A stretch of 64,000 nucleotides of DNA from a virus. Taxonomy: Duplodnaviria > Heunggongvirae > Uroviricota > Caudoviricetes. The notes below the pieces were generated by a model that was given only the letters and a program-made list of their open reading frames with translations, had not been told where the DNA came from and searched no databases. The DNA is taken from the IMG/VR virus record IMGVR_UViG_3300047667_001391. The stretch is one strand, 5' to 3'. Of the stretch, positions 13,059-62,241 are shown piece by piece. Numbering within the stretch: the stretch's first letter is position 1; every line of letters begins with the position of its first letter. The position numbers and the translations under genes were made by a program.

Positions 13059-13063
13059 AAAAT

Positions 13064-14071
13064 ATGTCAATATTTGAGAAAACAGAAACGTATCGACCAT
13101 TTAAATATCCATGGGCGATGGAGGCTACACAGGAACAGTCAATTGATTTGTATTGGGATGTTCACCAATTGGAATTTAGTGATGATATTCGTCAGTTTCA
13201 TGCTGATGGTGGGTTAGATACTACGAACGTACCTGCCAAATTTACTAAAAACTTACTAAATAAAACTCTGGCTATATTTACACAAATGGACGTAGCGGCT
13301 GGTGCTTTATATTGTAAGTTATTACCACATGTAGGTAATAACGAAATTCGTAATATGTGGATGAGTTTTGCATCAAAAGAATCGGTACATCAACGATCAT
13401 ATGCGCTGGGTGTTGAAGTATTGGATATGCCCGAAAGCACTTGGGGTGAATTTATGGAATATAAGGAAATGTCCGAAAAGATAGATATTATGGTGGATTT
13501 AGATGGCTTAGATCTATCAAAACCATTAGATTTCGGCAAAGCTTTGGCGTTACTATTATTATGTGAGGGTGTTGCCTTGTTTGGTGCATTCGCTGCCATG
13601 CTGAACCTTAAAAGGTTTGGTTTAATGATGGGACTTAATCAGGTAAATGAATATTCACTTAAAGATGAAAATGAGCACGTAAAGAATAACATGCGAGTTC
13701 TCTCTGAAGTGCGATTAGAATTAAGTCCAGATGAAAATCTAGAACTGGACTCATTCATTAATAAGTTAATAGTTAAAATGAGAAATGCTGAACATCGATA
13801 TATCGAGTTGATATTTGATATGGGTCCAGTTGAGGACATGACTGAACAGGACATGAAAGATTATATTGATTATTTATGTGACCTGCGGTTATCTCAACTT
13901 AGGCTCGGTAAGATCTTCAATACTTCTAATAATCCATTAGTTTGGATGGATTATGTTTTAGGTGGAAAACAACACACTAATTTCTTTGAGGCGAGGGTGG
14001 GTGAATATTCCCATTCCGGTCTCATTGGTGGGGTTGATTATAGTAAGTACGTAAAACAAAATACTTTTTAG
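13064..14071 (+). CDS. nrdB: ribonucleotide reductase small subunit
   Basis: 335 aa with ferritin-like di-iron/tyrosyl radical motifs (E..H pairs). It directly follows nrdA. Confidence 0.9.
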   Translation: MSIFEKTETYRPFKYPWAMEATQEQSIDLYWDVHQLEFSDDIRQFHADGGLDTTNVPAKFTKNLLNKTLAIFTQMDVAAGALYCKLLPHVGNNEIRNMWMSFASKESVHQRSYALGVEVLDMPESTWGEFMEYKEMSEKIDIMVDLDGLDLSKPLDFGKALALLLLCEGVALFGAFAAMLNLKRFGLMMGLNQVNEYSLKDENEHVKNNMRVLSEVRLELSPDENLELDSFINKLIVKMRNAEHRYIELIFDMGPVEDMTEQDMKDYIDYLCDLRLSQLRLGKIFNTSNNPLVWMDYVLGGKQHTNFFEARVGEYSHSGLIGGVDYSKYVKQNTF

Positions 14072-17780: not shown

Positions 17781-18836
17781 ATGTTACCGATGATTGGAGA
17801 TTTACACTTAGGTGAGGGGCGTGGTTCTGAATTAGTAATGAAGCACCAATTAGATTATTTAGCTGAAGTATTTATACCATATCTATGTAAAAATAACATT
17901 AAGGTTTTCTTACAAACGGGAGACTTATTTGATGTCCGACCAAATACAAACACATTCGTGTTAGCTGAATGGAAACGTAGATTTTTTAATCCATTGGAAG
18001 TTCTGGGTATTAGAATGATCACAATCATCGGCAACCACGACATGTTTTATAAAAATAAAATATCCCCCAATTCAATTACCGAACATTTAAGTGGTTATTC
18101 TAATATAACTATTATTGATACAGTGACAGAAATGACAATTGATAGTGTTAAAATTCTTTTCTGTCCGTGGATTTGTGATGAAAATGAAGAGCATGTCATG
18201 GACGCGATTGGAAATTCCGATGCTGATGTATGCTTTGGTCATTTTGAAGTAAAAGGCGCTCGCATGGAGTCTTCTGTATGTACTGATGGGTTACCCATCA
18301 GTACATTTAATCGGTTTAAGTTATGCGTAAGTGGCCATTTTCATTCTGCTGGTAAATATGACAATATTCAATATCTAGGTACCTGCTATCAAATGACTTG
18401 GGGCGACTTCGGTCACGAGAAAGGTTTTTGGAACTTAGACACATCTAATTTAGAGATGGAGTTTATTAAAAACAATAAAGAAATCTATCATCGACTTACA
18501 TACAATGAAAATAAAAGTATGGATGCTATAGTTGAAGGTGTGGATTATCGTGACCAACATATCAAAGTCACAATAGAAGAGCGCGAAGATTTTAATAAAT
18601 ACGAAGCGTGGTTTATGAAATTAGATTGTTGTGGTGCTGCGACACTTACTGTAATAGAACCATTTATTGATCGAGATGGGGATGAGTGTGACGTGGATGT
18701 TGATGGTGAGCTGACTGTACAGTCAACCAAGGATTTGATTAAGGAATATATAGATCAAATATATCCAGAACGAAAAGATGCATTAACCAAACTAATGCTA
18801 TCTATTCACTCCACAGCACAAAAACTTAACCCATAG
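17781..18836 (+). CDS. Mre11/SbcD-family recombination nuclease subunit (T4 gp47-like)
   Basis: Calcineurin-like phosphoesterase motifs DLHLG, GDLFD, GNHD and GHFH. The gene immediately precedes the Rad50-like gene. Confidence 0.85.
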   Translation: MLPMIGDLHLGEGRGSELVMKHQLDYLAEVFIPYLCKNNIKVFLQTGDLFDVRPNTNTFVLAEWKRRFFNPLEVLGIRMITIIGNHDMFYKNKISPNSITEHLSGYSNITIIDTVTEMTIDSVKILFCPWICDENEEHVMDAIGNSDADVCFGHFEVKGARMESSVCTDGLPISTFNRFKLCVSGHFHSAGKYDNIQYLGTCYQMTWGDFGHEKGFWNLDTSNLEMEFIKNNKEIYHRLTYNENKSMDAIVEGVDYRDQHIKVTIEEREDFNKYEAWFMKLDCCGAATLTVIEPFIDRDGDECDVDVDGELTVQSTKDLIKEYIDQIYPERKDALTKLMLSIHSTAQKLNP

Positions 18837-18852
18837 CAGGAGAAATAGACTA

Positions 18853-19128
18853 ATGAATGCTGCTAATATTTTAATGTATTCGGACAAAAAATATAAATTT
18901 TGTGTATACCATGAAAATGAAAACCGAGATTGTACGCTTTATGCACTCATGGAAACCGAAGAAGAGGCAATTACATTATCCAAAGACATGATATTGAATT
19001 ACTGTAATGACATAGAATATCATTTTTATCCAGCAGAAATAATTCGTATTACTTATGATATTACTACCATCGCAGATCAAATAACAAGAACAGTAGATGG
19101 CGCACACAGTAGAAGGTTAACAACATGA
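18853..19128 (+). CDS. hypothetical protein
   Basis: 91-aa ORF between the gp47-like and gp46-like genes. Confidence 0.5.
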   Translation: MNAANILMYSDKKYKFCVYHENENRDCTLYALMETEEEAITLSKDMILNYCNDIEYHFYPAEIIRITYDITTIADQITRTVDGAHSRRLTT

Positions 19129-31867: not shown

Positions 31868-32371
31868 ATGGAAATATTAAGGATTGGTATGTTAAATATA
31901 TTCGGGGAAACTTCAGTCGATCTGGTGGAGGAGGAGTTTAAGGCTCCACCAAACCCAAAGTTATTTGATTGGCTGGCTTCAATAAATAAATCTAAGGTCG
32001 ATTTAAGACTCACTTCACTTAGTGATAATATCGGACCTGATTCTATGATGAAAGGTTATGAACCCTTCATCATAAATAAAGGTATTGGGCAATCTGTTGG
32101 TACTATTGGCTTTGCTAATATATTAAATCGGTTACCTCATATCCCAAAGGAACAACAATATCTATTTCTTATGATGGGTATACCACGCAATAAATCATTT
32201 GCTGCATGGGCTAAAGAAGAAAAAATAAATAACTTAAAAGAAGTTATGGACAAATTGTGCTATACAAAAGAAAAGGCCAAAGAAGCTATATTGGTCTTGG
32301 GAGTTGATGGCGTTAACGAACTGCTACACGAAAAGGGTGGCATACAAAAGAAAATCAGGGGAAAGAAATGA
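31868..32371 (+). CDS. clamp loader subunit (T4 gp62-like); start uncertain
   Basis: YLFLMMGIPRNKSFAAWAKEEK resembles gp62 (YLMAAVPRGKRYGKWAKLVE). Its position after the gp44-like gene matches T4 order. An 84-aa overlapping ORF (31687..31941) may instead be a small membrane protein. Confidence 0.5.
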   Translation: MEILRIGMLNIFGETSVDLVEEEFKAPPNPKLFDWLASINKSKVDLRLTSLSDNIGPDSMMKGYEPFIINKGIGQSVGTIGFANILNRLPHIPKEQQYLFLMMGIPRNKSFAAWAKEEKINNLKEVMDKLCYTKEKAKEAILVLGVDGVNELLHEKGGIQKKIRGKK

Positions 32372-32997
32372 GTACATTTGATAGAGTTGCATTATGGAAC
32401 ACCGTTTGTGGTAAAGTTGCGCCAGAATTTGGTACACTCGATTATTTCACTACATTACGTAATCAGGCAAAAAGAATCCAAGAAGAATTGGACGAATTAG
32501 TGCTTGCAGTTGATGTTGCAGAAAATATACAAAATATTATATTAGATCAGTCTTGTTCTATTAATGTAGTTAATATTGACGGCGTATTTTATGAATGCAC
32601 CGAAGAAGAATTAAGTAAACAACATCAGGAAATTCTAGACGCTGGCTGTGATTTAGATGTAGTTGTTGCTGGTTTGAACTTCTTGTCCGGTCATGCTTAC
32701 TCTCTTGCAATCGAAGAAGTTTTGGCTAATAATGATGCTAAATACACAGGCGTAGCTGATTTTGCTATAGATTCACTAGAGTCTTATGGTGATGGTCACC
32801 GGATAGTAAGTACGCATATTGAAGTTGAGTCATCTCAACGTGATGATTTATTGGAAGGTGGCTTCACTACATACGTAAAAAATGGATTATTGTTTGCTAT
32901 TTTTCATACAGTGCATCGAGATAAAGACGATAAAATTATGAAGTTGCTCGGTCACCCTAAAGTAGACCTGATCCCATTCACAAGAACAGAAGCATAA
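32368..32997 (+). CDS. hypothetical protein (possible MazG-like pyrophosphohydrolase)
   Basis: 209 aa. QEELDELVLAV resembles a MazG EExxE motif only weakly. Confidence 0.45.
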   Translation: MSTFDRVALWNTVCGKVAPEFGTLDYFTTLRNQAKRIQEELDELVLAVDVAENIQNIILDQSCSINVVNIDGVFYECTEEELSKQHQEILDAGCDLDVVVAGLNFLSGHAYSLAIEEVLANNDAKYTGVADFAIDSLESYGDGHRIVSTHIEVESSQRDDLLEGGFTTYVKNGLLFAIFHTVHRDKDDKIMKLLGHPKVDLIPFTRTEA

Positions 32998-42823: not shown

Positions 42824-43111
42824 ATGCCACAAGTTAACAATTATAATTATGGTGTATGTGATACTAATGAAGTATTTATACAAACAGAGCCGCGTCAATT
42901 GGATTCCAATAAAGGTAAAGTCTATCTCCGGAAATGTGATTTAGTTGCACTAATTCAGCTACTAGAAGACGATGAGGCGGGGGACACTATGGGTAATCTA
43001 TCAGTATCAATATTACAAAAAGAGCGCATAGCAGAATTAGAACGTAAAGTTGCCCGATTACAAAGAGCAAAGGCAGCGTTTAATGCTCACAAAAATAGCG
43101 GAGGGTGGTAG
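42824..43111 (+). CDS. hypothetical protein
   Basis: 95-aa ORF. Confidence 0.5.
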   Translation: MPQVNNYNYGVCDTNEVFIQTEPRQLDSNKGKVYLRKCDLVALIQLLEDDEAGDTMGNLSVSILQKERIAELERKVARLQRAKAAFNAHKNSGGW

Positions 43112-43608
43112 TTATGTTAAGTTTTTTTAAGAAAATTAGTGGATTGGATTCAATAAAAGGTCATGTATTTTTGGTGGGGGATATATACCAAAAAAAGAAT
43201 TATGATGAATGGCAATTAAATAATGGCCCAAAAGTGACCATAGTGGATATTAGTAGTAGGCGTGATAGGCTGAAATACAAAGAGCATTTTTCTTCGGTTG
43301 TTAGGGAGTGCAGTTATGTACGGTTTTTATCTAAGTATAATTTAGTACCAACACAAATAACACAAATAACCCCTGACCCATATTCAGTACACCCAATTAT
43401 AGTATGCAAGGAAAATGATGAGACGAACCAAAATAGCACGACGGTTGAGGTTGGCGAGGCGGTTAAGGTGGATGAGAAAGTAAAGCCAGTCGGTCCCCCA
43501 AATGAAAGATTTAGTCTTTGGTTTACAGGCAGCGAAAATTTTCCATTATTAATTAGTTGGGGTATAGTTACAATTTTATTAATTTGCATTTTAAGTGTGG
43601 TTGTATGA
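43105..43608 (+). CDS. hypothetical protein with a C-terminal TM anchor
   Basis: 167-aa ORF. Confidence 0.5.
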   Translation: MVVMLSFFKKISGLDSIKGHVFLVGDIYQKKNYDEWQLNNGPKVTIVDISSRRDRLKYKEHFSSVVRECSYVRFLSKYNLVPTQITQITPDPYSVHPIIVCKENDETNQNSTTVEVGEAVKVDEKVKPVGPPNERFSLWFTGSENFPLLISWGIVTILLICILSVVV

Positions 43609-44710: not shown

Positions 44711-45355
44711 ATGAATATATGTGATATATACATTACACAAGAATATCGTATGCGCCGTGACACAAGATGGATGAAATCTGGCTACAAATCACGAGCAACC
44801 ATTGTTGATATAAACCTAGAGTTGGGTGAGGTTAAGTATAAAAAAGATAGCACTGGTCAATTTTATACTCAAGGAGCATCTAAATTTTTATCTAGTTATG
44901 TACCTATAATAATTTTAGATGGTACACGACAAGATAAACCCTTGGGTGATAGTCAGCGACCGCAACCCTTAAAGGAGGAAAAGGGACTTCAGCCTGCAAA
45001 GAATCCACCTAGAATGCCACAAGTAAAACCACCTATTTCAGAATATTTAAACGGGCAGAACATGTCAGAACAAGAAAAAATGATATTAAAGAAAGCAAAA
45101 GCGGGAGCTGGCTTAGCTAGAGCAAAGATGCTCATTGTTGATGCACGTAGGTCTGGTACTGATAAAATATTTCAATCACGAGTAGCCACTACAATACCAA
45201 CACCACCACGACCACCTATTTCGGAAATATATGCACCAGATGACGCGAAAATTGAAGATACCGCATTTAATAAAATATTTTTTACTCCTATCTTTAATTG
45301 CATTCATTTAATTGCTGCATTTGTAGTTGTCACGTGCTTATTTGTTGCTCAATAA
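44711..45355 (+). CDS. proline-rich C-terminally membrane-anchored protein, tandem paralog 1
   Basis: The N-terminal ~50 aa and the upstream leader (aattaattaggaaatNaaATG) are duplicated in the next gene. Confidence 0.5.
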   Translation: MNICDIYITQEYRMRRDTRWMKSGYKSRATIVDINLELGEVKYKKDSTGQFYTQGASKFLSSYVPIIILDGTRQDKPLGDSQRPQPLKEEKGLQPAKNPPRMPQVKPPISEYLNGQNMSEQEKMILKKAKAGAGLARAKMLIVDARRSGTDKIFQSRVATTIPTPPRPPISEIYAPDDAKIEDTAFNKIFFTPIFNCIHLIAAFVVVTCLFVAQ

Positions 45356-45371
45356 TTAATTAGGAAATAAA

Positions 45372-45716
45372 ATGAATATATTTGAAAAATATTATAAACG
45401 AGGCGATACCCCGTGGTTACGGAGTGGCTACAAGACAGAGGTGACTATTATTGATATTAACCAACATTTGGGTGAGGTTAAAATTAATGAAAGTCACACG
45501 GGTGATATTCGTACAGTTCTTATTACGATATTTTTAACGCAATACGCAATAATAGTAACACCACCACCACCACCTACTACAGAAATAATGAACCCAATCC
45601 CGCCGCCAAAAATTATAAAATGTGATGATTTAAGTACTCCACCCGCGTTAGTATTAACTGCATTGATAGTTATTGTGGTGTTGACTACATTACTAGTTTG
45701 GGGCATGAAAGGATGA
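45372..45716 (+). CDS. proline-rich membrane-anchored protein, tandem paralog 2
   Basis: See paralog 1. Carries a PPPPPTT tract. Confidence 0.5.
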   Translation: MNIFEKYYKRGDTPWLRSGYKTEVTIIDINQHLGEVKINESHTGDIRTVLITIFLTQYAIIVTPPPPPTTEIMNPIPPPKIIKCDDLSTPPALVLTALIVIVVLTTLLVWGMKG

Positions 45717-46003
45717 GTGCCCATATTCAACTCATTAAAAAATTTCTAAATGATTATAGTTCAGTTAGCCCAGAAGAATTAAAAGAGAATTTGTTATCTG
45801 CTGATATAATCACAAAAAACAAATACAAAAGTGCCGATGGGTTTACCTACAAGCTAATTCTTGATGGTAGGACTGCTAGGGCTGTCAGGAATGCAGCATC
45901 AGCAGCATGTGACTTATGTGGTGCCGTTGATAAGGATTTTAGAATGTCTGCCATTTCGTCTGTTCATTTTTGGATTAATAAATATGAGGAATTATCAAAA
46001 TGA
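45698..46003 (+). CDS. hypothetical protein
   Basis: 101-aa ORF. Confidence 0.45.
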   Translation: MGHERMSAHIQLIKKFLNDYSSVSPEELKENLLSADIITKNKYKSADGFTYKLILDGRTARAVRNAASAACDLCGAVDKDFRMSAISSVHFWINKYEELSK

Positions 46004-47298
46004 AAATATATTTAGTTGGTGGTGCAGTACGGGACTTGTTTCTTGGCCTAGTACCAAAAGATTATGACTTTGTTGTGGTAGGTAGTAGCCCAAAAGAAAT
46101 GCTCGAAATGGGTTACATACAGGTTGGTAAAGACTTTCCTGTATTCCTTCACCCAGTTTCCAAAATGGAATATGCGCTGGCCAGAACAGAACGAAAAGTT
46201 GGGCTTGGTCATACTGGGTTTACCTGCGATTGGGAGAATGTAACATTAGAACAAGACCTATTGAGACGAGATCTAACGATTAACTCAATGGCTGTGCAAG
46301 TCGAAGTAGACAAAAACGGGTTGATGGTTCGTCATATTGGAATATTATGTGACCCATTTCATGGCCAAGAACATATAGAATCTAAGATGCTGGTCGCAAC
46401 ATCTAATGCATTTATGGAAGACCCACTAAGAGTTTTACGGGTTGCTAGGTTCCGAGCAAGACTTGGACCCGAATGGCAAGTAGAAACACATACACAAGAA
46501 ATGATGAAAAATATTAGTGACCGTGGTGAATTGCAGAGTATATCACCGGAGAGAGTATGGAAAGAACTGGAGTCTGCTTTAAGTGAACCACATCCAAATT
46601 TATTCTTCGAAACTTTATTTGGGTATGATATATTCCATATGAGTAAATGGATGGAGGAAACTCCTCAGCGAGCAGACCACCACCCAGAAGGTGATGTATT
46701 CATACATACCATGCTAACCCTAAAATTGGCCGCACAACGTTGTGTGAGTCCACAAGAAATGTTTGCTTGTTATGCCCATGACTTTGGTAAGCCTAGCTGT
46801 CACGACGAGTTTGGGAGTGCTCATGGACATGAAAAGGTTGGATTAAGTTTTATCGATGAATTTTGTGATTTATATAAAGTGCCTAATAAATTTAGAAAAT
46901 TAGCTTTACATGTATGTGAATATCATACTATAATTCACGGTTGTCTTGGTCGTGGACCGAATAAAGGAATCACAGCCAAGACTATAATGAAAATGTTTGA
47001 AGCAACAGGGGCATTGAAGAGTCCTGACTACTTTTTTCAAATATTGCGCTGCAGTCAGATGGATGCAGGGGGTAGGGGGTACGGAGAAGAACAAATATTA
47101 GAATATGCAAATAAACCATACCCCCAAGTAAGTTACTTACTTGGGTGCTTGCGGTGGGCTATAAATTGTGACACAAAGCCTCTGGTAAAAAAATTACAAG
47201 ATAATGGCGTTGATGGTAGAGTCATTGGAATTGAGATTAGAGCAGCCAGAATGAATGAGATAAAAAGATTTAAATGGGAATGGGAACATAATGAGTGA
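46000..47298 (+). CDS. cca: CCA-adding tRNA nucleotidyltransferase with HD domain (class II, bacterial type)
   Basis: Near-colinear with E. coli Cca. MKIYLVGGAVRD..LG...KD.D.VVVGS.P.EML..GY.QVG.DFPVFLHP and YALARTERK are present. An HD-domain histidine/aspartate set (HDFGK) follows. Confidence 0.9.
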   Translation: MKIYLVGGAVRDLFLGLVPKDYDFVVVGSSPKEMLEMGYIQVGKDFPVFLHPVSKMEYALARTERKVGLGHTGFTCDWENVTLEQDLLRRDLTINSMAVQVEVDKNGLMVRHIGILCDPFHGQEHIESKMLVATSNAFMEDPLRVLRVARFRARLGPEWQVETHTQEMMKNISDRGELQSISPERVWKELESALSEPHPNLFFETLFGYDIFHMSKWMEETPQRADHHPEGDVFIHTMLTLKLAAQRCVSPQEMFACYAHDFGKPSCHDEFGSAHGHEKVGLSFIDEFCDLYKVPNKFRKLALHVCEYHTIIHGCLGRGPNKGITAKTIMKMFEATGALKSPDYFFQILRCSQMDAGGRGYGEEQILEYANKPYPQVSYLLGCLRWAINCDTKPLVKKLQDNGVDGRVIGIEIRAARMNEIKRFKWEWEHNE

Positions 47299-47797
47299 GA
47301 TAAAAGTATTAAGAAGTTTATATTATGCGGGGAAAAGACTCAGGGATACGTCTCCAGTTGATGATGATTTTCCAGAAATGATGCATAATTTTGATGGTGC
47401 ATTATCGTTAGCCGAAAAATCAATAAATACCGGAGAACACCAAAGTATTAGTGATTTATGTAAACGCCATTTCGATTGGGTTGAACGTATGGGTTGGCAT
47501 AATAAAACTGTATTAGAATCGTTAGCATTAATTGCCAGTGAAGTCGGAGAAGCTTCAGAAGAGCTATCCGAAAATGACCCAATGCAATTAAAAATGGCAG
47601 GATTATCTAGAACTATCGCGAAAGCGGTTAATTGTTGCCGTAAAGAAAAACCGACTGATAATTTTAAAACAGAATTAGCAGATATATGTCTTCGTACATT
47701 TGACCTAGCAGAGACTGAGGGTATTGACTTACTTGAAGTAATACTAGCTAAAATGAAGGTTAATGAAGCCAACGGCACTAGAGGCCGAAAAATTTAA
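47291..47797 (+). CDS. MazG-like nucleotide pyrophosphohydrolase
   Basis: LIASEVGEASEEL and ELADICLRTFDLAETEGIDLLEVILAKMKVNEANGTRGRK match the MazG core and C-terminus. Confidence 0.6.
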   Translation: MSEIKVLRSLYYAGKRLRDTSPVDDDFPEMMHNFDGALSLAEKSINTGEHQSISDLCKRHFDWVERMGWHNKTVLESLALIASEVGEASEELSENDPMQLKMAGLSRTIAKAVNCCRKEKPTDNFKTELADICLRTFDLAETEGIDLLEVILAKMKVNEANGTRGRKI

Positions 47798-47812
47798 CAA
47801 TGGGGGAACATA

Positions 47813-48793
47813 ATGAGACTAAATGAGACACAAAAGTTGTGGCTGAATGAGAAGGTAAAAGATAAGGACGTAATATTTATGTCTGTTCATGGTAGCAGAC
47901 TTTATGGACTAGCATCCGAAACAAGTGATCACGACATCAAGGCTATATATTGCCCTTCAAAAGAAGACTTACTTATGGGTCGAGCACTAAAAACATATAA
48001 TTCAAAAAATCATAATATGAATATAGAATTAGAGCTTAAATCTATTAGTAGTTTCTTAAAAAGTGCATTGAGTTGCGACACAAACTGTATCGATTTATTA
48101 TTTACGCCACCAGAACATATTCTGTTCGATTCTAATTTATGGAATAAAATAAAATACTTTCGGCACGATATATTCTCTCAAGACATGAAAGGTATTATTG
48201 GTTATATAAAAACACATAGTTATAAATATACTAATAAAATTGATAGATTTGATGAGATTTCTAAATTATTAGAAATAACATTAAATATGCGGGATTTTGG
48301 GTCTACGTTAACATCAGATGTCGCCAACTCATCAAAATTAATTGATGGGAATTTTAAATATATAAAAAATGTAACCTTGGTTTCTGACCACGAGCAACAG
48401 TATTTGGAAGTTTGTGGTAAAAAATACATACATAATTTAAGTATTAATTCTTTAATTAGAGCACTACAACACGAAGTTTCTCGTTACGGTAACCGAACCA
48501 AGAAAGGTAGTGATGGTGGCATAGATACAAAAAGTCTAAGTCATGCAATTAGGGTGTTATCACAACTTGAAGAAATTATTAATTACGGCCGTGTGAATTT
48601 TCCTCTAATTGAGGCACCATATATTATGAATGTTAAGAATGGAAGGGTTGCACTCGAAAAAGTTATGACTGATATTGATGAACGTTATGATAGATGTATT
48701 CATCTATTAGCAAAAAACAAAAATAATTTCCCCGAAGTATCCAATGTGGATAATATGATTTCGGTAATTAGTAAATACGTTTTTGGGTATTGA
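47813..48793 (+). CDS. Pol-beta superfamily nucleotidyltransferase
   Basis: HGSRLYGLASETSDHDIKAIY fits the GS-x3-G-x5-SDxD minimal NTase motif, followed by a helical C-terminal domain. Confidence 0.55.
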   Translation: MRLNETQKLWLNEKVKDKDVIFMSVHGSRLYGLASETSDHDIKAIYCPSKEDLLMGRALKTYNSKNHNMNIELELKSISSFLKSALSCDTNCIDLLFTPPEHILFDSNLWNKIKYFRHDIFSQDMKGIIGYIKTHSYKYTNKIDRFDEISKLLEITLNMRDFGSTLTSDVANSSKLIDGNFKYIKNVTLVSDHEQQYLEVCGKKYIHNLSINSLIRALQHEVSRYGNRTKKGSDGGIDTKSLSHAIRVLSQLEEIINYGRVNFPLIEAPYIMNVKNGRVALEKVMTDIDERYDRCIHLLAKNKNNFPEVSNVDNMISVISKYVFGY

Positions 48794-52148: not shown

Positions 52149-52358
52149 ATGTTAAATGAAAAAATGAAATCGGTTATAGCTGCCTTACGTAATGGTAAAT
52201 ATAATCAATCTAAGGTTAGCCTGCAAGATTCTGATATGCAGTGCTATTTAGGTGTTTTATGTGACGAAAAGGAAACTGGGCATAAAAGTAGACGTAACTC
52301 ATCCCCAGAAATCGCTGTCGTTGATAACACAAACACAGAAGGATTACTTATATGTTAA
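52149..52358 (+). CDS. paralog-array member 1 (truncated, central segment deleted)
   Basis: Shares an N-terminus (M.NE.MK.V.AALR.GKY.Q) and a C-terminal EGLLI with the array family. Confidence 0.5.
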   Translation: MLNEKMKSVIAALRNGKYNQSKVSLQDSDMQCYLGVLCDEKETGHKSRRNSSPEIAVVDNTNTEGLLIC

Positions 52359-52699
52359 ACGAAAATATGAAATCGGTTATAGTTGCCCTACGTAGTGGTA
52401 AATACAAGCAGACCGTAGGTGCTTTACAAAATAGCTGTGGTCATTGCATACTTGGTGTAATTTGTGAGGTGTACGAAACAGACACTGGGGAAAGTCCAAA
52501 ACGTGATTTGCGTGGTCGATTAATAGGTGAAGATTTATCTAGCCATATGGATGTACAGGAGTGGGTGGGTTTAGTGGACGGTGACGGTGATTGCGGCATT
52601 AGTAGACCATCACTAATGACTATGAACGATATACACAAAAATACATTCTCGGAAATCGCTGATTTTATTGAGTCTAATCCAGAAGGATTATTAGTATGA
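52352..52699 (+). CDS. paralog-array member 2
   Basis: Conserved N-terminus MxNxNMKxVxVALRSGxYxQT..LQ.S.GHCxLGVxCEVYE, then WVGL and a C-terminal F.EIADFIE..PEGLLV. Confidence 0.65.
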   Translation: MLNENMKSVIVALRSGKYKQTVGALQNSCGHCILGVICEVYETDTGESPKRDLRGRLIGEDLSSHMDVQEWVGLVDGDGDCGISRPSLMTMNDIHKNTFSEIADFIESNPEGLLV

Positions 52700-53040
52700 T
52701 AAACAAAAATATGAAAAAAGTGTTGGTTGCCTTACGCTCCGGTGAATTTACACAAACTGTAGCAAAATTACAAGATAGTTCTGGCCACTGTTGTTTAGGT
52801 GTGATGTGCGAAGTTTATGAGAAAGAAACTGGTGATGAACTTCCGCGTGACCAATCAGATTTTTTAGTGGGCAATAATCTTAACGACCATCAAAATGCAT
52901 TACTTTGGCTGGGGCTAAGCAGCCCTCAAGGGCATAATGAGGTTGGTAGCAGCCTTATTTGCAGAAATGATTTTAATAGAAATACATTCTTAGAAATTGC
53001 TGATTTCATCGAATCTGAACCAAAAGGATTATTAGTATGA
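52696..53040 (+). CDS. paralog-array member 3
   Basis: Same family. ATGA overlap with its neighbours. Confidence 0.65.
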   Translation: MINKNMKKVLVALRSGEFTQTVAKLQDSSGHCCLGVMCEVYEKETGDELPRDQSDFLVGNNLNDHQNALLWLGLSSPQGHNEVGSSLICRNDFNRNTFLEIADFIESEPKGLLV

Positions 53041-53411
53041 TAAACAAAAATATGAAAAAAGTGTTGGTTGCCTTACGCTCTGGTGAATTCACCCAAGCCG
53101 AAGGTATGCTACAATGTTCTGGTGGCCACTGTTGTTTAGGTGTGATGTGCGAGGTTTATGAGAAAGAAACTGGTGATGAACTTCCACATAATAGCATGGG
53201 GTTTTTGGTAGGTGGGGATCTTGATGGGCAGTTTTTTGGTAAAGTAAAGAGTTGGGTGGGACTAAAAAGTTACTCTGGAAAATTTGTTGGTTCATCGGGT
53301 AATCCCAATACTCCCAATAATTCACTAGTGGATATGAATGACACATTAAATAAGTCATTCGATGATATTGCTGATTTCATCGAAACTGAACCAGAAGGAT
53401 TATTAGTATGA
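53037..53411 (+). CDS. paralog-array member 4
   Basis: Same family. ATGA overlap. Confidence 0.65.
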   Translation: MINKNMKKVLVALRSGEFTQAEGMLQCSGGHCCLGVMCEVYEKETGDELPHNSMGFLVGGDLDGQFFGKVKSWVGLKSYSGKFVGSSGNPNTPNNSLVDMNDTLNKSFDDIADFIETEPEGLLV

Positions 53412-53761
53412 TAAACGAAAATATGAAGAAAGTTTTAGTTGCCTTACGTTCCGGTGAATATCAGCAAACTAAATGTAAATTACAAGATAGTTATGGTCAC
53501 TGTTGTTTAGGTGTGATGTGTGATGTTTACGAAAAAGAAACTGGTGTCAAACTTCGACGAGATACTGATAATTATATAAATGGATACAGTCTTGTCTTTA
53601 TACAAGAAGTGCAGCAGTGGGTTGGATTAACTGATACACATGGTACATTTATGTCACCAAGTAAACCATACTCACTAGCGACGATGAACGATCTTGAGGA
53701 TAAAACATTCCTAGAAATTGCTGATTTCATCGAAACTGAGCCAGAAGGATTATTAGTATGA
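53408..53761 (+). CDS. paralog-array member 5
   Basis: Same family. ATGA overlap. Confidence 0.65.
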   Translation: MINENMKKVLVALRSGEYQQTKCKLQDSYGHCCLGVMCDVYEKETGVKLRRDTDNYINGYSLVFIQEVQQWVGLTDTHGTFMSPSKPYSLATMNDLEDKTFLEIADFIETEPEGLLV

Positions 53762-54093
53762 TAAACGAAAATATGAAAAAGGTTTTAGTTGCCTTACGTA
53801 GTGGTGAATATAAACAAACTCAATATAGATTACAAGATTCTGGTGGCCACTGTTGCTTAGGTGTGATGTGCGAAGTTTATGAGAAAGAAACTGGTGTCAA
53901 ACTTCCGCGAGATGGTGTATCAGGTTTTATAGTAGGTTCTAATCTTAATAAATTTCCGTTAGTAAAGAGCTGGGTGGGATTACACGAAGACATCGTAGCT
54001 GATGTTAATGCGAATATCGATTTACTGGTGGGTATGAATGACACATTTAATAATTCATTCGATGAAATCGCTGACTTCATCGAAACTGAATAA
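53758..54093 (+). CDS. paralog-array member 6 (C-terminus shortened by a small indel)
   Basis: Same family. Ends ...FIETE. Confidence 0.6.
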   Translation: MINENMKKVLVALRSGEYKQTQYRLQDSGGHCCLGVMCEVYEKETGVKLPRDGVSGFIVGSNLNKFPLVKSWVGLHEDIVADVNANIDLLVGMNDTFNNSFDEIADFIETE

Positions 54094-54104
54094 AAAGGAT
54101 TATT

Positions 54105-54458
54105 ATGATAAACGAAAATATGAAGAAAGTTTTAGTTGCCTTACGTTCCGGTGAATTCACACAAACAACATCAACCTTACAAGATAGTTGTGGTCACTGT
54201 TGTTTAGGTGTGATGTGTGAAGTTTACGAAAAGGAAACTGGTGTCAAACTTCCGCGAGATATATCAGGTTTTATAGTAGGTTCTAATCTTAGTGGTTTTC
54301 CTCTAGTAAAGAGCTGGGTGGGATTAAATAAAGACAACGATGCGGGTCATGCAGATGGCAGTATATATTCACTAGTGGATATGAACGATAGGCTCAATAA
54401 TACTTTCTTAGAAATTGCTGATCATATCGAGTCTCAACCAAAAGGATTATTAGTATGA
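54105..54458 (+). CDS. paralog-array member 7
   Basis: Same family. Confidence 0.65.
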   Translation: MINENMKKVLVALRSGEFTQTTSTLQDSCGHCCLGVMCEVYEKETGVKLPRDISGFIVGSNLSGFPLVKSWVGLNKDNDAGHADGSIYSLVDMNDRLNNTFLEIADHIESQPKGLLV

Positions 54459-54799
54459 TAAACGAAAATATGAAGAAAGTTTTAGTTGCCTTACGCTCCG
54501 GTGAATATAAACAAACTCAAGAATCGTTACAAGATAAATCTGGTCACTGTTGTTTAGGTGTGATGTGTGAAGTTTACGAAAAAGAAACTGGGGATACTAT
54601 CCCCCGTAGTAGTAGTGGACTTATTATCGGTGGTGATCTTGGTGTAAGACGCCAAAAAGTAAGACGCTGGGTGGGACTAAAACATCATAACGGTTCGTGC
54701 TTGGTTGGCAAATCACTAATTTCTATGAATGACGCAAATAAGTCATTCATAGAAATTGCTGATCATATCGAGTCTCAACCAGAAGGGTTATTAGTATAA
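54455..54799 (+). CDS. paralog-array member 8
   Basis: Same family. ATGA overlap. Confidence 0.65.
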   Translation: MINENMKKVLVALRSGEYKQTQESLQDKSGHCCLGVMCEVYEKETGDTIPRSSSGLIIGGDLGVRRQKVRRWVGLKHHNGSCLVGKSLISMNDANKSFIEIADHIESQPEGLLV

Positions 54800-54881: not shown

Positions 54882-56888
54882 ATGGATTTCATGACACTGA
54901 AGATGGCAATAAACAATAAGTTTGACGAACTTCAAAAGGGCAACTTATATATTTCCAATGCAACTAAAGAAGAATTATGGGACACGTACATATCTTCGTT
55001 TCGCCCAGAAGATAACCCAATGTTTCGTGAGCGAACCGAACATGATTGTAATTGCTGCAAGTCTTTTATTCGCACTGCTGGCGGTATGTTGTCCATCGTT
55101 AATAATAAGATTGTGTCTATTTGGGATGTCGTAGATGTACCAGAGGGCTATCAAATCGTCGCCGATGCTATGTCTGCATTAGTTAAAAGTAGGGGCATAG
55201 ATACTGAATTTCTTCACTATGAAAATACTGTTGGTACGGACCATAACCACGACACAGAAACTGATGTTGTGTGGAATCATTTTTATTTAAAATTACCATC
55301 TAGATTTGTTAATAAAGACTCAGGTGCAGTAACTGGTCTAACCCGTGACCGATACAATATGGCACGTCGTTCATTAGCTGGGATCACGATGGAATCTATT
55401 AATATTGTGATTGAGTTAGTTAAAAATAAAGAAATTTATCGCGGCGAAGAGCACTTAGATTCCATTAATAAATTCGCCGGAACGAAAAATGCTTTCGAGA
55501 GTATTAGTGAGCAAAATGTCGAAGCTAGAACAGCATTTCTCTGGGAAGCCAGTAAAAGAATTGGTGCAGCATCTGGTTTTCGAACTACAGTAATTGGTAC
55601 GTTGTTATCTGATATTAGTGAAGGGGTTGAATTATATAAAGCTGTAAAGTCTTTTGAGAGTAAAGTAGCACCAAGTAATTACAAGCGACCAACTCAGATT
55701 TTATCTAAGGCTGCCATCGAAAAAGCTGAAGCTAAAATGATTGAGTTGCTTATCACAGATGCATCACTTGAACGCAGAATGTCAAGAGCTGAAGACATTA
55801 CTATAAATAATGTGTTATTTGCAGACCGCTCCGCTCAAGAAAAAATGGGTATTTTTCATATGCTACAATCTGAGGTTAAGGTTAAGGTGCCGTCATATAA
55901 AAAGGACATGGAAATGTCAATTGATGAGTTCATAAACGACGTGTTACCAAACGTATCGACGGTTGAAATGGCCATGGATAACACACATGTCGGTAATTTA
56001 ATGACCTTAGTCTCGCCAATATACGAAGAAGCTGAATCAATCCTCAAGTGGGGCAATAATTTTAGTTGGTCATATAATGGTGAAGTTACTGACTCAATCA
56101 AAGAGCGCGTAAAAGCTGCTGGCGGTAATGTAACTGGCGATGTACGAGTCTCATTGAGTTGGCACAACGCTGATGACTTAGATTTGCATGCCAAAACACC
56201 TAATGGGCGAAGAATTAATTTTAGTAATCGAACTGATGGGCGTGGCGGTGAGTTAGATGTCGATATGAACGCTAATGGTAGACATGACAGAATAAATCCA
56301 GTAGAAAACATTACGTGGCCAGATGAGTCACGGATGCATAATGGTTTATATGAAGTTAATGTTCATAATTACACGAAGCGTCAAAATGATAATATCGGGT
56401 TTGAGGTTGAGTTAGAGCATAAAGGTATAATCCATAAATTCGTTTATGATAAGGCAGTGAAGGACGGAGAATCTATTGAAGTGGTTCAGTTTGATTTTAA
56501 TACACGAAATGGTATTAGTATAATTAAGTCATTGCCATCAGTTAATTCTCAAAGACAAGTTTGGGGTGTCTCCACCAATAAATTCCAAAAGGTGAGTATG
56601 ATTATGAATTCACCAAACCATTGGGATGGTGAAGCTACCGGAAACAAGCATGTGTTCTTTATGTTAGAAGGGTGTGTTAATCCAGAACCAGTGCGCGGAT
56701 TTTATAACGAATTCCTACGCGATGATTTACACAGTGAACGCAAAGTGTTTGAAGTACTGGCTGGTAAAATGAAACCGGAACCATCAGTTAATCAGTTATC
56801 TGGTTTAGGGTTCTCAAGTACGCAGCGCAATAGTGTATTATGTAAAGTTACAGGCGAAATCAATCGCACAATTAAAATTAAGTTCTGA
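54882..56888 (+). CDS. large hypothetical protein (668 aa) with a possible TerD-like beta-sandwich region
   Basis: VRVSLSWHNADDLDLHAKTPNGRRINFSN...GGELDVDMN resembles the TerD signature (GLGWD...DLDaSa...fyn). An N-terminal HDCNCCKSF Cys cluster is present. Confidence 0.55.
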   Translation: MDFMTLKMAINNKFDELQKGNLYISNATKEELWDTYISSFRPEDNPMFRERTEHDCNCCKSFIRTAGGMLSIVNNKIVSIWDVVDVPEGYQIVADAMSALVKSRGIDTEFLHYENTVGTDHNHDTETDVVWNHFYLKLPSRFVNKDSGAVTGLTRDRYNMARRSLAGITMESINIVIELVKNKEIYRGEEHLDSINKFAGTKNAFESISEQNVEARTAFLWEASKRIGAASGFRTTVIGTLLSDISEGVELYKAVKSFESKVAPSNYKRPTQILSKAAIEKAEAKMIELLITDASLERRMSRAEDITINNVLFADRSAQEKMGIFHMLQSEVKVKVPSYKKDMEMSIDEFINDVLPNVSTVEMAMDNTHVGNLMTLVSPIYEEAESILKWGNNFSWSYNGEVTDSIKERVKAAGGNVTGDVRVSLSWHNADDLDLHAKTPNGRRINFSNRTDGRGGELDVDMNANGRHDRINPVENITWPDESRMHNGLYEVNVHNYTKRQNDNIGFEVELEHKGIIHKFVYDKAVKDGESIEVVQFDFNTRNGISIIKSLPSVNSQRQVWGVSTNKFQKVSMIMNSPNHWDGEATGNKHVFFMLEGCVNPEPVRGFYNEFLRDDLHSERKVFEVLAGKMKPEPSVNQLSGLGFSSTQRNSVLCKVTGEINRTIKIKF

Positions 56889-59798: not shown

Positions 59799-60671
59799 AT
59801 GTTTAACGATATTAGGGTAATATTAAATAATAATGTGGGTATGAGTGTTATAGTCAGTCAGTTTAATGATGGGTCGGTTAATGTATGCCTACCACCTGAT
59901 GTACGCTGTCCGATTAGTGTGGGTTCGATTGTAGTGCGTGCTAAATTGACAAGTTCTGTTAGTTTAGTTGCATTGTTACTGACGGTTGATGCGTGTCGTC
60001 GGAAATTCCCAGATTTACAATTCATCTCTTTGGTTGCTCATTATATGCCATACGCAAGACAAGACCGTGTGTGTAATATGGGTGAGTCACTTTCGTCGAA
60101 AGTTATGGCTGGCCTTATTAATGGTTGTGGTTTTAGTAGTGTGACTATCGCAGACCCACACAGTGATGTGATGGTGGCGTTGATAGATAATTGTAAAGTT
60201 ATTAGTGCAGAAAGTATCATTGCTTCTAATGAAGTTCTATCTAATAGAATTATGGGTGGATTTTATACACTAGTTGCGCCGGATGCTGGCTCAAGAAAGA
60301 AAGTAGAAAAAATCGCAACACGTTTTGGACTCGATGGATTTGTGCAGGGGTCAAAACATAGAAACTTAAAGACTGGGGAATTGTCAGAAATAACATTTAG
60401 TGGTGATGTCCAAGATAAACATTGCCTTATCATAGATGATATATGCGATGGTGGTGGGACATTCGTTGGTCTAGCAGAAATAATGAAGGAAGCTGGGGCA
60501 CTTAGTGTAGATTTGTATGTGACACACGGGTTCTTTTCTCGTGGCACCGATACAGTAAATGGCGAAAATAAGGCAATAAACCAAATATTCACAACAGACT
60601 CAATTAGCAGAGACCAAGGCACACGTAAGTCTCTTAATATAATCGAAATAGGAAATAATAATTATGAGTAA
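59799..60671 (+). CDS. ribose-phosphate pyrophosphokinase (Prs)-family enzyme; candidate ADP-ribose pyrophosphokinase (Adps-like)
   Basis: FNDGSVNV, the YMPYARQDR flexible-loop region and a PRPP-binding CLIIDDICDGGGT motif, all co-linear with bacterial Prs. Confidence 0.8.
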   Translation: MFNDIRVILNNNVGMSVIVSQFNDGSVNVCLPPDVRCPISVGSIVVRAKLTSSVSLVALLLTVDACRRKFPDLQFISLVAHYMPYARQDRVCNMGESLSSKVMAGLINGCGFSSVTIADPHSDVMVALIDNCKVISAESIIASNEVLSNRIMGGFYTLVAPDAGSRKKVEKIATRFGLDGFVQGSKHRNLKTGELSEITFSGDVQDKHCLIIDDICDGGGTFVGLAEIMKEAGALSVDLYVTHGFFSRGTDTVNGENKAINQIFTTDSISRDQGTRKSLNIIEIGNNNYE

Positions 60672-62241
60672 CGTCGTACCAGCAACATTAGCAAAAGATG
60701 CATACAAGGCATTTCACCCATTAGCATATCACCCTGATGTCTCAGAAGTTTATGCAAATTACATAAATCGCTCTGGTCGTTTAAGTAATATACCAACTAA
60801 GATAAATCTTGGTGGTGTAGTTAATATTGGCGCACAAAGATTCTGTATGGATTTCTTAATTGGCGAGTTTAATGATACTTTCTTCAACCTAGATGAAGAT
60901 GTGGCCATTGAGCAGCATGCTCGTGTATTTAGAGCTATGTTAGGGCGAGCATTTAGCGACGAAAGACTACGTAAACTACATAAGTTGGGTTATCTTCCTC
61001 TTCGCCTTAAAACACTACCAGAAGGCACAATAACTCCGTATGGTGTTGCTAACATTACTGTGCGATCAACCAAATCTGATTTTCAGTGGTTAACAAACTC
61101 AATTGAAACTGTATTGAGCTGTGAAGTTTCTGGTATATCTACTTCATGCACCACAGCCACTGCATACCTAAAAACTTTTATTAAATATGCTCGACTCACT
61201 GGATTAGATGAAGAATTCTGTCAATTTCAGGGGCATGATTTTTCAATGCGCGGTATGATTTTTGGTCGACATGGCGCATACCTTTCTGGTTTAGGGCATC
61301 TTGCATCTGGCTTAGTTGGTACCGATACCATGGGTTCAGTTTTATTAGCCGAGAAATTCTATGGCGCAAACCTAGAAACTGAGTTAGTTGGTGTATCAGT
61401 TGATGCAACAGAACATAGTGTAACTTGTTCTTGGATCGAAGAAGGCGAAGAAGAGTTCTGTAAATATTTAATGAGTAAAGCTTCACCTTCCGGTATTCTT
61501 TCGGTAGTTGCTGACACTTGGGACTTTGAGAATTTTGTGTGCAATATTGTACCTAAATTAAAAGAAGCAATTATGGCACGTGATGGGTCGTTTATAATCC
61601 GCCCCGACTCTGGTTGTCCGGTCAAGGTATTAACTGGTTATACTAGCGAAGAAGTGAGCATGGATTATCGCGGTAAATTCTACCCACTTGATGATGATGG
61701 CGAAGTAGATTATTATTCTAAAGCCCTAACACAATTTGAAATTGATGGCCTCATTGAAACATTATGGAATCAATTTGGTGGCACACTAACTGATAAAGGT
61801 TATAAGCTTTTAGATGAGCATATTGGTGCAATTTATGGGGACTCAATTACATTAGAACGTCAAGAGCTAATCTTACAGCGTTTAATGGATAAGGGGTTCG
61901 CTTCTAAGGTTGTCCTTGGTATTGGTAGTTACACGTATCAACACGTGACACGCGACACACATGGCTCTGCAGTAAAAGCTACTAGTATGATTAAAGATGG
62001 CCGTCGCGTTGCTATATTTAAAGACCCTAAAGGTGATAGCAGTAAGAAATCCGCGAAAGGTTTGTTGTATGTTGGTCGCGATGAGAATGGTGTAATACAC
62101 CAATTTGATGATGTATCTGAGGAACACGAAAGAGAAGGTTTATTGGAAACTATATTTTTGGATGGTAAAATGGTTAAAACCACTACACTAAAAGAAATTC
62201 GTGCTCTAATTATGTCACAGCTCCAAACTCAACTTAAATAA
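60664..62241 (+). CDS. nicotinamide phosphoribosyltransferase (NAMPT/NadV)-family enzyme; candidate Namat-like
   Basis: DAYKAFHPLAYHPDVSEVYANY, GHDFSMRG, IIRPDSGCP and GIGSY are co-linear with the NAMPT motifs DSYK, GYRG, RPDSG and GSGGG. It overlaps the Prs-like gene by 8 nt. Confidence 0.8.
   Translation: MSNVVPATLAKDAYKAFHPLAYHPDVSEVYANYINRSGRLSNIPTKINLGGVVNIGAQRFCMDFLIGEFNDTFFNLDEDVAIEQHARVFRAMLGRAFSDERLRKLHKLGYLPLRLKTLPEGTITPYGVANITVRSTKSDFQWLTNSIETVLSCEVSGISTSCTTATAYLKTFIKYARLTGLDEEFCQFQGHDFSMRGMIFGRHGAYLSGLGHLASGLVGTDTMGSVLLAEKFYGANLETELVGVSVDATEHSVTCSWIEEGEEEFCKYLMSKASPSGILSVVADTWDFENFVCNIVPKLKEAIMARDGSFIIRPDSGCPVKVLTGYTSEEVSMDYRGKFYPLDDDGEVDYYSKALTQFEIDGLIETLWNQFGGTLTDKGYKLLDEHIGAIYGDSITLERQELILQRLMDKGFASKVVLGIGSYTYQHVTRDTHGSAVKATSMIKDGRRVAIFKDPKGDSSKKSAKGLLYVGRDENGVIHQFDDVSEEHEREGLLETIFLDGKMVKTTTLKEIRALIMSQLQTQLK

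Follow-up and report, generated by a model that had tools for sequence, protein, structure and literature searches.

A recurrent phage cca-rlaP gene pair, as carried by a marine T4-like phage, and its possible role in rebuilding tRNA 3′ tails

Depletion of tRNAs is increasingly recognised as a bacterial means of stopping phages, and phage enzymes such as T4 PseT-Rnl1 and the RNA-repair sets of jumbo phages have been proposed to reverse the damage done to host tRNAs. PseT-Rnl1 combines a kinase-phosphatase with a ligase, which heal and seal cuts in the anticodon loop. RlaP, a family reportedly named by Burroughs and Aravind in 2016, includes T4 NrdC.11 and the Pseudomonas enzymes of rtcB operons, with a GS...SDxD core and a C-terminal helical domain. 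E. coli Cca (PRK10885) consists of a class II head, an RNA-binding body and an HD domain, the last of which removes 2′,3′-cyclic, 2′- or 3′-phosphates. Published biochemistry has established that members of the Cca family rebuild C74-C75-A76 on tRNAs. RlaP enzymes add one or two NMPs to RNA 3′-OH ends in vitro, as determined for Pseudomonas enzymes only (PMC12776372), and earlier proposals for T4 NrdC.11 and bacterial RlaP couple the family to RNA ligases and to repair of the anticodon loop, not of the acceptor end (PMC7824862, PMC12776372). Both phage RlaP and the phage CCA-adding enzyme have already been listed as predicted end-restoring RNA-repair nucleotidyltransferases (NTases; Iyer et al. 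2021, PMC7824862), so that phage-encoded repair by such enzymes is not as new as a first-pass annotation of the locus described here had implied.

The locus belongs to a marine T4-like phage and lies within a 64-kb stretch of DNA (64,000 nucleotides), here called the window. The row of Cca, a MazG-like protein and a 326-aa NTase that had been annotated there was recovered as three intact, tightly packed open reading frames, all on the plus strand (Table 1), and the same order is present in identical Logan contigs. The first 8 nt of the MazG-like frame are shared with the end of cca, across its stop, and for the MazG-like frame a 15-nt gap separates its own stop from the rlaP start. By Pfam and PHROG matches, the genes are set in a region of replication and nucleotide metabolism, adjoined by a primase-like gene and Dda. 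ARAGORN found no tRNA genes in the 64-kb window, in agreement with the first-pass annotation, and no Rfam family was matched there. Searches for an RNA ligase or PNK were negative, both in the window, by profiles seeded with T4 Rnl1, Rnl2 and PseT, and among its ∼45 other proteins, by PHROG and Pfam scans. Scans for promoter and terminator consensus sequences gave background levels, and no operon boundaries were obtained from them. Whereas PseT-Rnl1 seals anticodon-loop cuts, the cca-rlaP pair includes no ligase, and its target would be the 3′ tail. Unlike the jumbo phages, the window phage probably has a genome of about 100 kb, since the DNA polymerase closest to its own (55% identical) is that of Vibrio phage henriette 12B8, a 107-kb phage.

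Table 1. Positions of the cca, MazG-like and rlaP genes and of the flanking repeat in the window
Feature	Position	Strand	Description or basis
cca	46000..47298	+	432 aa; E. coli-type class II CCA-adding tRNA nucleotidyltransferase with C-terminal HD phosphohydrolase domain
Left copy of 14-nt perfect direct repeat, GGGAACATAATGAG	47282..47295	+	Repeat search; spacing 522 bp
MazG-like gene	47291..47797	+	168 aa; small MazG-domain NTP pyrophosphohydrolase; inserted cassette
Right copy of 14-nt direct repeat	47804..47817	+	Repeat search; sequence read
rlaP	47813..48793	+	326 aa; PF10127 (RlaP, T4 NrdC.11 family) Pol-beta RNA 3′-end nucleotidyltransferase, predicted

Like E. coli Cca, the window enzyme has a class II head, an RNA-binding body and an HD domain, together with all catalytic motifs. 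Its matches to the Pfam models PolyA_pol (8.7e-16, spanning model positions 1-125 of 126), PolyA_pol_RNAbd (5.1e-07) and HD (1.8e-05; 25.4 bits, cutoff 22) all exceed the gathering scores, PHROG 2244 matches it at 2.5e-117, and the NCBIfam model PRK10885, "multifunctional CCA addition/repair protein," gives a full-length alignment with it (residues 1-425 to model positions 1-404 of 409). In an alignment of the window Cca with phage and gammaproteobacterial Cca (alignment A1), the head motifs G7-G8-A-V-R11-D12, D21-Y-D23, R89-R90-D91 and E140-D141-P-L-R144 are kept, and the HD ligands H228-P-E, H260-D261, H277 and D355 are invariant across the phage and bacterial sequences. Pfam, PRK10885 and A1 therefore agree with the original description of a full-length class II Cca with an intact HD domain; the concern that catalytic DxD or HD residues might be missing was examined in A1, and the residues are present. 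The PRK10885 score of 386.5 bits is below the equivalog cutoff of 451, and identity is 42-46% to gammaproteobacterial Cca over the full length and 52% to the Cca of Alishewanella phage Slickus01. By score and alignment, the window Cca is a member of a diverged phage clade of the PRK10885 family rather than an equivalog. It differs from E. coli Cca in being phage-encoded and in that its CCA-adding and phosphatase activities are predicted, and its clade has insertions of its own (e.g., between motifs B and C) and carries GCLGRGxN in the HD domain. A scan of viral contigs for Cca with a single protein as query gave no match; a query built from an alignment was required.

The NTase motif reads G27-S28-RLY-G32-LASET-S38-D39-H-D41, exactly the minimal Pol-beta pattern GS-x3-G-x5-SDHD that had been quoted for it, and the accompanying guess of PF10127 was borne out by a score of 29.8 bits against Pfam RlaP (cutoff, 23) and by a match of PHROG 388 over the full length (1.3e-66). 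In BLASTP the protein is 31% identical to T4 NrdC.11 over residues 20-295 (E = 3e-35), with G27-S28, D39-x-D41 and a third carboxylate, D94, aligned. Within the C-terminal helical domain, G236, D238, K240, H244, R247 and E254 show little or no variation among 11 sequences including T4 NrdC.11, and the pattern G-x-D-x-K-xxx-H-xx-R is kept. The window RlaP is thus built as T4 NrdC.11 and the Pseudomonas enzymes of rtcB operons are, but it and its closest relatives are coupled to cca and not to an RNA ligase gene. No solved structure was matched by sequence, and no relative of the window RlaP subfamily was found in the bacterial genomes searched. We rejected two other assignments of the NTase, as an MntA antitoxin (15.9 bits; cutoff, 60) and as a CD-NTase or other defence protein (no PADLOC match among the four proteins scanned, which included Cca, the MazG-like protein and RlaP).

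RlaP is encoded 3′ of Cca in all seven related lineages examined. In five of them (L093-L095, L091, L089/L090, Slickus01 L001 and L106) the two genes are directly adjacent, with overlapping stop and start codons, and in Barba19A (L008/L105) and L092 one small gene lies between them. The identities of Cca and RlaP to their window counterparts drop together, from 87/79% in L093-L095 through 67/63% in L091, 58/55% in L089/L090 and 52/43% in Slickus01 L001 to 51/41% and 48/50%, which suggests co-inheritance. Every relative found of the window RlaP subfamily adjoins Cca, either directly or one small gene apart. Beyond this subfamily, profile searches of 80 IMG/VR Cca loci placed RlaP within 10 kb of Cca in 22, and in 19 the two genes share a strand and are no more than 3.5 kb apart; these counts represent non-independent events, as many of the loci are related. 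When Cca was grouped into clusters of at least 60% identity, this 3.5-kb, same-strand linkage to RlaP appeared in 15 of 39, and some of the linked RlaP copies in these clusters were only 19-26% identical to that of the window. Other Cca loci have Rnl1 directly downstream, and also Rnl2, PNK, a hydrolase that is possibly PTH2-like, or tRNA arrays, and at least one such gene occurred within 10 kb of Cca in 42 of the 80. We conclude from gene order and sequence relationships that Cca and RlaP form a real and recurrent two-gene unit, cca then rlaP. Their linkage in many phage lineages fits a shared role in RNA 3′-end repair; adjacency alone is weak evidence, because genes of broadly similar function tend to cluster in phages. 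RlaP does not adjoin the closest Cca relatives found in Shewanella phages 1/4 and 1/40, Vibrio phage eugene and Barba8S. A conserved small gene directly 3′ of cca in Vibrio and Shewanella phages proved to be neither MazG nor RlaP but a fragment of a Toprim/primase.

With regard to function, we lean towards the reading that, in infected cells, the cca-rlaP pair restores the 3′ tails of tRNAs, chiefly those of the host, the activities being predicted from sequence. The HD domain of Cca would clean the damaged 3′ end, RlaP would fill in nucleotides missing 5′ of CCA, in the discriminator or the last acceptor positions, beyond the reach of Cca, and Cca would then re-add CCA. Such rebuilding would keep translation going while host exonucleases, tRNA-tail-directed toxins or defences trim the ends, and RlaP enzymes may act at the acceptor end besides the anticodon loop. 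The candidate lesions put forward in the first-pass annotation are cuts by tRNA 3′-end nucleases, toxSAS/CapRel-type pyrophosphorylation and MenT-type nucleotidylation. Counting against tail rebuilding are the far greater abundance of RlaP in phages that have no Cca (1481 phage records for RlaP versus 414 for Cca, with most RlaP records coming from T4-like phages without Cca), the presence of the host's own Cca, and the emphasis of published RlaP work on ligases and the anticodon loop.

A more specific proposal, that the pair is a dedicated counter-defence which rebuilds tRNA tails in response to a system such as Cas12a3, seems to us unlikely. Cas12a3 removes the discriminator base together with CCA, and its discoverers describe viral countermeasures as unknown (PMC12851939). 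Where immunity of this kind strips the discriminator base and CCA from most tRNAs, RlaP would refill the upstream nucleotide or nucleotides and Cca would re-add CCA, so that chargeable tRNAs would be restored without any ligase; acceptor-end toxins would be a second possible target. The spare tRNAs that phages carry cannot beat cleavage of the universal CCA tail, and a compact, ligase-free cassette that might restore those tails makes a concrete candidate for a countermeasure. Were this proposal true, the pair would be the first case of a virus countering tRNA-tail cleavage, and RlaP would gain a new role at the acceptor end.

Tail rebuilding must be weighed against a housekeeping role, in which the phage Cca tops up or replaces host Cca once the host is shut off, or matures phage tRNAs, RlaP tidies RNA ends, and defence has no part. 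We regard this as possible, if on the improbable side, and were the pair only housekeeping, the result would be an ordinary one, namely another phage with two catalogued accessory genes. In E. coli, Cca is known to be needed to offset the normal turnover of CCA ends by exonucleases, and Cca-carrying phages are mostly large. As for tRNA genes, they lie within 10 kb of Cca in 14 of the 80 loci; in Slickus01 a tRNA array lies upstream of cca at a distance of 6 kb, and at a single locus, L034, CCA is not encoded by any of the 12 tRNA genes. However, nearly all tRNA genes near cca do encode CCA (87 of 104 ARAGORN predictions in relatives' loci), 12 of the 17 exceptions come from L034 alone, and the Barba phages, whose Cca is 48% identical to that of the window, have no tRNA genes in their complete genomes (PMC6715854). 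For these reasons it is unlikely that Cca merely matures phage tRNAs without an encoded CCA, and the trivial explanation named in the first-pass annotation, a phage set of CCA-less tRNA genes, finds no support in the relatives. The recurrence of RlaP, Rnl1/Rnl2, PNK and the possibly PTH2-like hydrolase near Cca also argues against housekeeping and points to damage repair.

It is also conceivable, although we think it quite unlikely, that Cca and RlaP are independent neighbours, RlaP mending anticodon-loop cuts with a ligase and PNK encoded elsewhere, Cca acting separately, and their adjacency reflecting no more than modular gene order. The predominance of T4-like phages without Cca among the 1481 RlaP records would suit this arrangement, as would the coupling of RlaP to ligases in published models (PMC7824862, PMC12776372) and the position of the cassette in a replication module beside the primase-like gene and Dda. 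What it sits badly with is the overlap of stop and start codons and the joint divergence of Cca and RlaP in otherwise differing backgrounds, as well as the finding that all members found of the window RlaP subfamily adjoin Cca and that linkage extends across 15 of 39 Cca clusters to RlaP copies as distant as those noted above.

The remaining gene of the row, the MazG-like gene, occupies a 522-bp insertion between perfect 14-nt direct repeats; the left copy contains the final codons of Cca along with the start codon of MazG, and the right copy contains the RlaP start codon. L093, the relative with 87% identity in Cca, has one related repeat copy at its Cca/RlaP junction, and no MazG gene separates Cca from RlaP in L093-L095, L091, L089/L090 and L001. 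The nearest MazG homologues outside the window lineage (64% and 55% identity) are found in early regions of lambdoid prophages, near RecT/YqaJ, and these prophages have neither Cca nor RlaP. From its absence in relatives, the flanking repeat and the unrelated contexts of its homologues, we conclude that the MazG-like gene is a recent, lineage-specific and unrelated insertion that lies outside the Cca-RlaP unit. It would represent an independently acquired, predicted (d)NTP pyrophosphohydrolase that entered at the cca/rlaP junction with translational coupling kept, and it would be dispensable for the pair. Of the single countermeasure originally proposed for Cca, MazG and the NTase, the linkage of Cca to RlaP is upheld by the cluster survey and the participation of MazG is not. 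A three-gene scheme, in which MazG might for example strip pyrophosphate or aberrant nucleotides from tRNA ends, is highly improbable: the genes are contiguous and translationally coupled here and in the identical Logan contigs, but every other lineage lacks a MazG gene at this position between Cca and RlaP, the repeat around it is typical of insertion, its closest outside homologues sit near RecT/YqaJ in lambdoid prophages, and MazG enzymes act on free (d)NTPs. Treating MazG as a bystander spares effort on such a model.

The assignment of this gene to the MazG family, also made in the first-pass annotation, is weaker by Pfam but otherwise secure: PHROG 3301 matches the protein (6.1e-21), and it is 55-59% identical to 94-aa proteins that carry PF03819, while its own score against that Pfam model, 18.5 bits, is below the gathering cutoff of 22. 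Alignments A5/A6 show that the acidic residues E84-V-G-E87 (followed by E90/E91) and E128-L-A-D131 are kept, corresponding to the E-x-x-E ... E-x-x-D core of small MazG-domain pyrophosphohydrolases (PF03819; phage MazG, MazZ), from which the window protein differs by an N-terminal extension of ∼50 aa and an internal insertion of 24 aa. Its AlphaFold model is all-helical (pLDDT 88), and the best fold match in the PDB, a weak one, is E. coli MazG. As a possible counterpart, T4 gp56 dCTPase was discarded because there was no significant similarity. The "hydrolase" encoded between Cca and RlaP in Barba was likewise rejected as a MazG homologue, having no similarity; it matches PHROG 3668 and bears a weak resemblance to PTH2.

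By its sequence, the first of three closely packed plus-strand genes across 46000-48793, all lying where the first-pass annotation had drawn them according to our ORF calls, encodes an E. coli-type class II CCA-adding enzyme. Pfam finds PolyA_pol, PolyA_pol_RNAbd and HD domains, the protein matches PHROG 2244 and shares 42-46% identity with gammaproteobacterial Cca, and it aligns over its full length with the NCBIfam "multifunctional CCA addition/repair protein" model (386.5 bits, under the equivalog cutoff of 451). The HD domain had been called intact, and an alignment checked for loss of the catalytic DxD and HD residues bears this out, as the DYD motif and HD dyad are present together with GGAVRD, RRD, EDPLR and HHPE. 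E. coli Cca is a CCA-end repair enzyme whose HD domain acts both as a 2',3'-cyclic phosphodiesterase and as a phosphatase. The third protein had been offered as a PF10127 candidate and can now be assigned to the PF10127/RlaP nucleotidyltransferases, since it scores over the Pfam cutoff, matches PHROG 388 (1.3e-66) and resembles T4 NrdC.11 (31% identity, E = 3e-35). Deposited phage records hold Cca genes in 414 cases and RlaP/NrdC.11 genes in 1481. Between the two lies a putative small MazG-domain pyrophosphohydrolase, which is sub-threshold in Pfam, is 55-59% identical to many 94-aa proteins with PF03819, and keeps the acidic E-x-x-E ... E-x-x-D residues. The Cca and MazG ORFs share 8 nt, the MazG and RlaP ORFs are 15 nt apart, and 4 nt separate RlaP from the next gene.

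Features of the window and of related phage loci
Feature	Source	Coordinates	Strand	Length
Cca ORF	window	46000-47298	+	432 aa
MazG-like ORF	window	47291-47797	+	168 aa
RlaP ORF	window	47813-48793	+	326 aa
Direct repeat, copy 1	window	47282-47295		14 nt
Direct repeat, copy 2	window	47804-47817		14 nt
Segment without counterpart in L093	window	47306-47851		
Single-subunit RNA polymerase	window	5811-8210		799 aa
Second MazG-like pyrophosphatase	window	32368-32997		209 aa
Paralogues upstream of cca	window	43105-43608; 44711-45355; 45372-45716		
Seven-paralogue array	window	52352-54799		111-124 aa each
DUF8224 protein	window	54882-56888		668 aa
PRPP synthetase and NAPRTase/Nampt-family enzyme	window	59799-62241		
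PHROG 3668 gene	L008 (Barba19A)	11245-11676		
PHROG 3668 gene	L014 (Cca locus)	12425-12916		
Split cca	L106 (related contig)	6041-7968		
Split rlaP	L012 (related locus)	11643-13470		
Gad1-matching protein	L089 (58% relative)	17910-18971		

In the closest relatives MazG is missing and rlaP directly follows cca, the stop codon of one overlapping the start codon of the other. This is the arrangement in three contigs from TARA and ENA samples with 87%-identical Cca (L093-L095), in a 67% relative (L091) that keeps the window's UvsY...Cca-RlaP-primase order, in a 58% relative of other genomic background (L089/L090), and in Alishewanella phage Slickus01 (52%). When the window is aligned with L093, the flanks match at 88.5% and 84.7% DNA identity, and a perfect 14-nt direct repeat (GGGAACATAATGAG) brackets the extra segment, its copies, 522 bp apart, falling exactly at both gene junctions and supplying the start codons of MazG and RlaP; one related copy occupies the L093 junction. 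By a rough estimate, chance alone would produce such a repeat within 700 bp in about one of a thousand trials. The nearest MazG homologues beyond this lineage (64% and 55% identity) sit beside RecT/YqaJ in the early regions of lambdoid prophages, where neither has Cca or RlaP nearby, and no MazG homologue was found in the other Cca loci searched. The absence of MazG from relatives, the flanking repeats and the unrelated contexts of its homologues argue that it is a recently inserted accessory cassette, and we found no evidence that it serves its neighbors. We thus reject the three-gene module: of the single countermeasure proposed by the first-pass annotation, MazG drops out as a partner, whereas a Cca and RlaP pair for tRNA 3'-end repair stays plausible.

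The cca-rlaP pair is probably a real unit. Identities of Cca and RlaP to the window copies drop in step (87/79, 67/63, 58/55, 52/43, 51/41 and 48/50%, respectively), and every member found of the window's RlaP subfamily is coupled to cca; an IMG/VR scan for this subfamily returned two contigs, L106 and Rheinheimera phage Barba19A, the latter already met in the scan for Cca, and in each of them Cca lies immediately upstream. A single ORF separates the genes in Barba19A (143 aa) and in the related locus L092 (73 aa). By profile searches of 80 Cca-centered IMG/VR loci, RlaP lay within 10 kb of Cca in 22, of which 19 had it on the same strand at no more than 3.5 kb; a rough yardstick is the ∼5% chance that a gene present once in a genome of 150 kb falls within 3.5 kb of another. 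The linkage recurs in 15 of 39 Cca clusters (60% identity clustering) and includes RlaP copies only 19-26% identical to that of the window. One or more genes for RNA repair or tRNAs were found within 10 kb of Cca in 42 of the 80 loci; in other phage groups RNA ligase 1 directly follows Cca, RNA ligase 2 lies close by, as do tRNA arrays, and one contig has the order PNK-Cca-hydrolase-RlaP. From these counts, phage cca habitually keeps the company of tRNA and RNA-repair genes, among which rlaP is the commonest partner. A third gene, absent from the window, recurs between the two in 13 of the 80 loci (PHROG 3668, "hydrolase", ∼145-165 aa, motif GIHAGIQSxH); its profile matches archaeal-type peptidyl-tRNA hydrolase 2zv3 weakly (E = 0.2), which is a lead only. 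The cca of L106 and the rlaP of L012 are each split by a ∼640-bp insert, perhaps a homing element.

Other members of the RlaP family add one or two NMPs to RNA 3'-OH ends with low base specificity, require Mn2+ and prefer damaged tRNA mimics (PMC12776372), and a part in replacing lost nucleotides during RNA repair has been proposed for the phage versions of RlaP and of the CCA-adding enzyme (PMC7824862). Acting together, the pair would rebuild tRNA 3' tails, with Cca unable to restore positions upstream of C74 and RlaP supplying the nucleotide(s) there. Two serious rivals are a plain housekeeping role and an RlaP that works separately from Cca, together with a ligase whose gene lies beyond the window. 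Ligase-free coupling to cca implies that the acceptor end may be a site of RlaP action. Maturation of a large set of CCA-less phage tRNAs, the trivial explanation, is argued against by the relatives, as CCA is encoded in 87 of 104 ARAGORN tRNA predictions near cca (a tally that includes the near-identical Shewanella phage regions L002, L006 and L007) and 12 of the 17 others come from a single locus. That Cca-carrying locus, L034 (IMGVR_UViG_3300017527_000512), carries 12 tRNA genes at most 10 kb from cca, all of them lacking an encoded CCA, and is the one case seen where this explanation would fit. As previously annotated, the 64-kb window holds no tRNA genes, nor was any Rfam family found in it. 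Barba phages carry Cca without tRNA genes, and Cca there must therefore act on host tRNAs or other RNAs.

Phage Cca and RlaP are already known, each has a PHROG family and both have been interpreted in print as RNA-repair enzymes, and the pair in this phage is not a new system. Their tight, ligase-free coupling in marine phages may be new; we did not find it stated in the literature searched, which did not include the 2016 paper defining RlaP. A candidate target is tail cleavage of the Cas12a3 type. The cuts made by Cas12a3 fall 2-4 nt from the 3' end of tRNA tails and can take the discriminator base as well; its authors state that phage tRNAs cannot circumvent this cleavage and that no viral mechanism of resistance is known (PMC12851939). 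The interest of the cca-rlaP finding lies mainly in this possible and testable link to tRNA-tail-cleaving immunity. In L089, a protein with a Pfam match to Gad1 (Gabija anti-defense) lies 6.8 kb downstream of the Cca-RlaP pair, which hints at an anti-defense-rich region.

The window, at ∼35% G+C along its full length, is a single long run of plus-strand genes for T4-type replication and nucleotide metabolism (UvsX, gp41-like helicase, PhoH, gp46/47, clamp loader, gp43 polymerase, gp59, gp32 and RNase H; also gp45, dNMP kinase, UvsW, UvsY, Dda, dCMP deaminase and NrdAB). Because no close DNA match exists among 50,697 deposited phages and the nearest DNA polymerase, from Vibrio phage henriette 12B8 (107 kb), is 55% identical, it comes from an undescribed marine phage infecting Gammaproteobacteria, with a genome of probably ∼100 kb. 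A single-subunit RNA polymerase (PHROG 414, 5.2e-164) lies within the T4-like replication module, an unusual combination. The second MazG-like protein (PHROG 2144, 1.4e-22; no match in a Pfam scan), with clamp loader and DNA polymerase on either side, is unrelated to the one beside cca. The PRPP synthetase adjoins its partner as an NAD-salvage pair, also present in Barba phages, that may be relevant to NAD-depleting defenses. The DUF8224 protein (PHROG 1735, 4e-257) is very strongly conserved among phages. Shortly upstream of cca lie three paralogues in which a Pro-rich linker joins a common N-terminal domain (∼60 aa, 30-45% identity) to a C-terminal hydrophobic helix; a PHROG search with the second and third gave no match. 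The seven head-to-tail paralogues (48-73% pairwise identity, stop/start overlaps) keep their N-terminal (…GHCCLGVMCEVYEKETG…) and C-terminal (…EIADFIE.EPEGLLV) parts around a variable middle, and look like a diversifying gene array.
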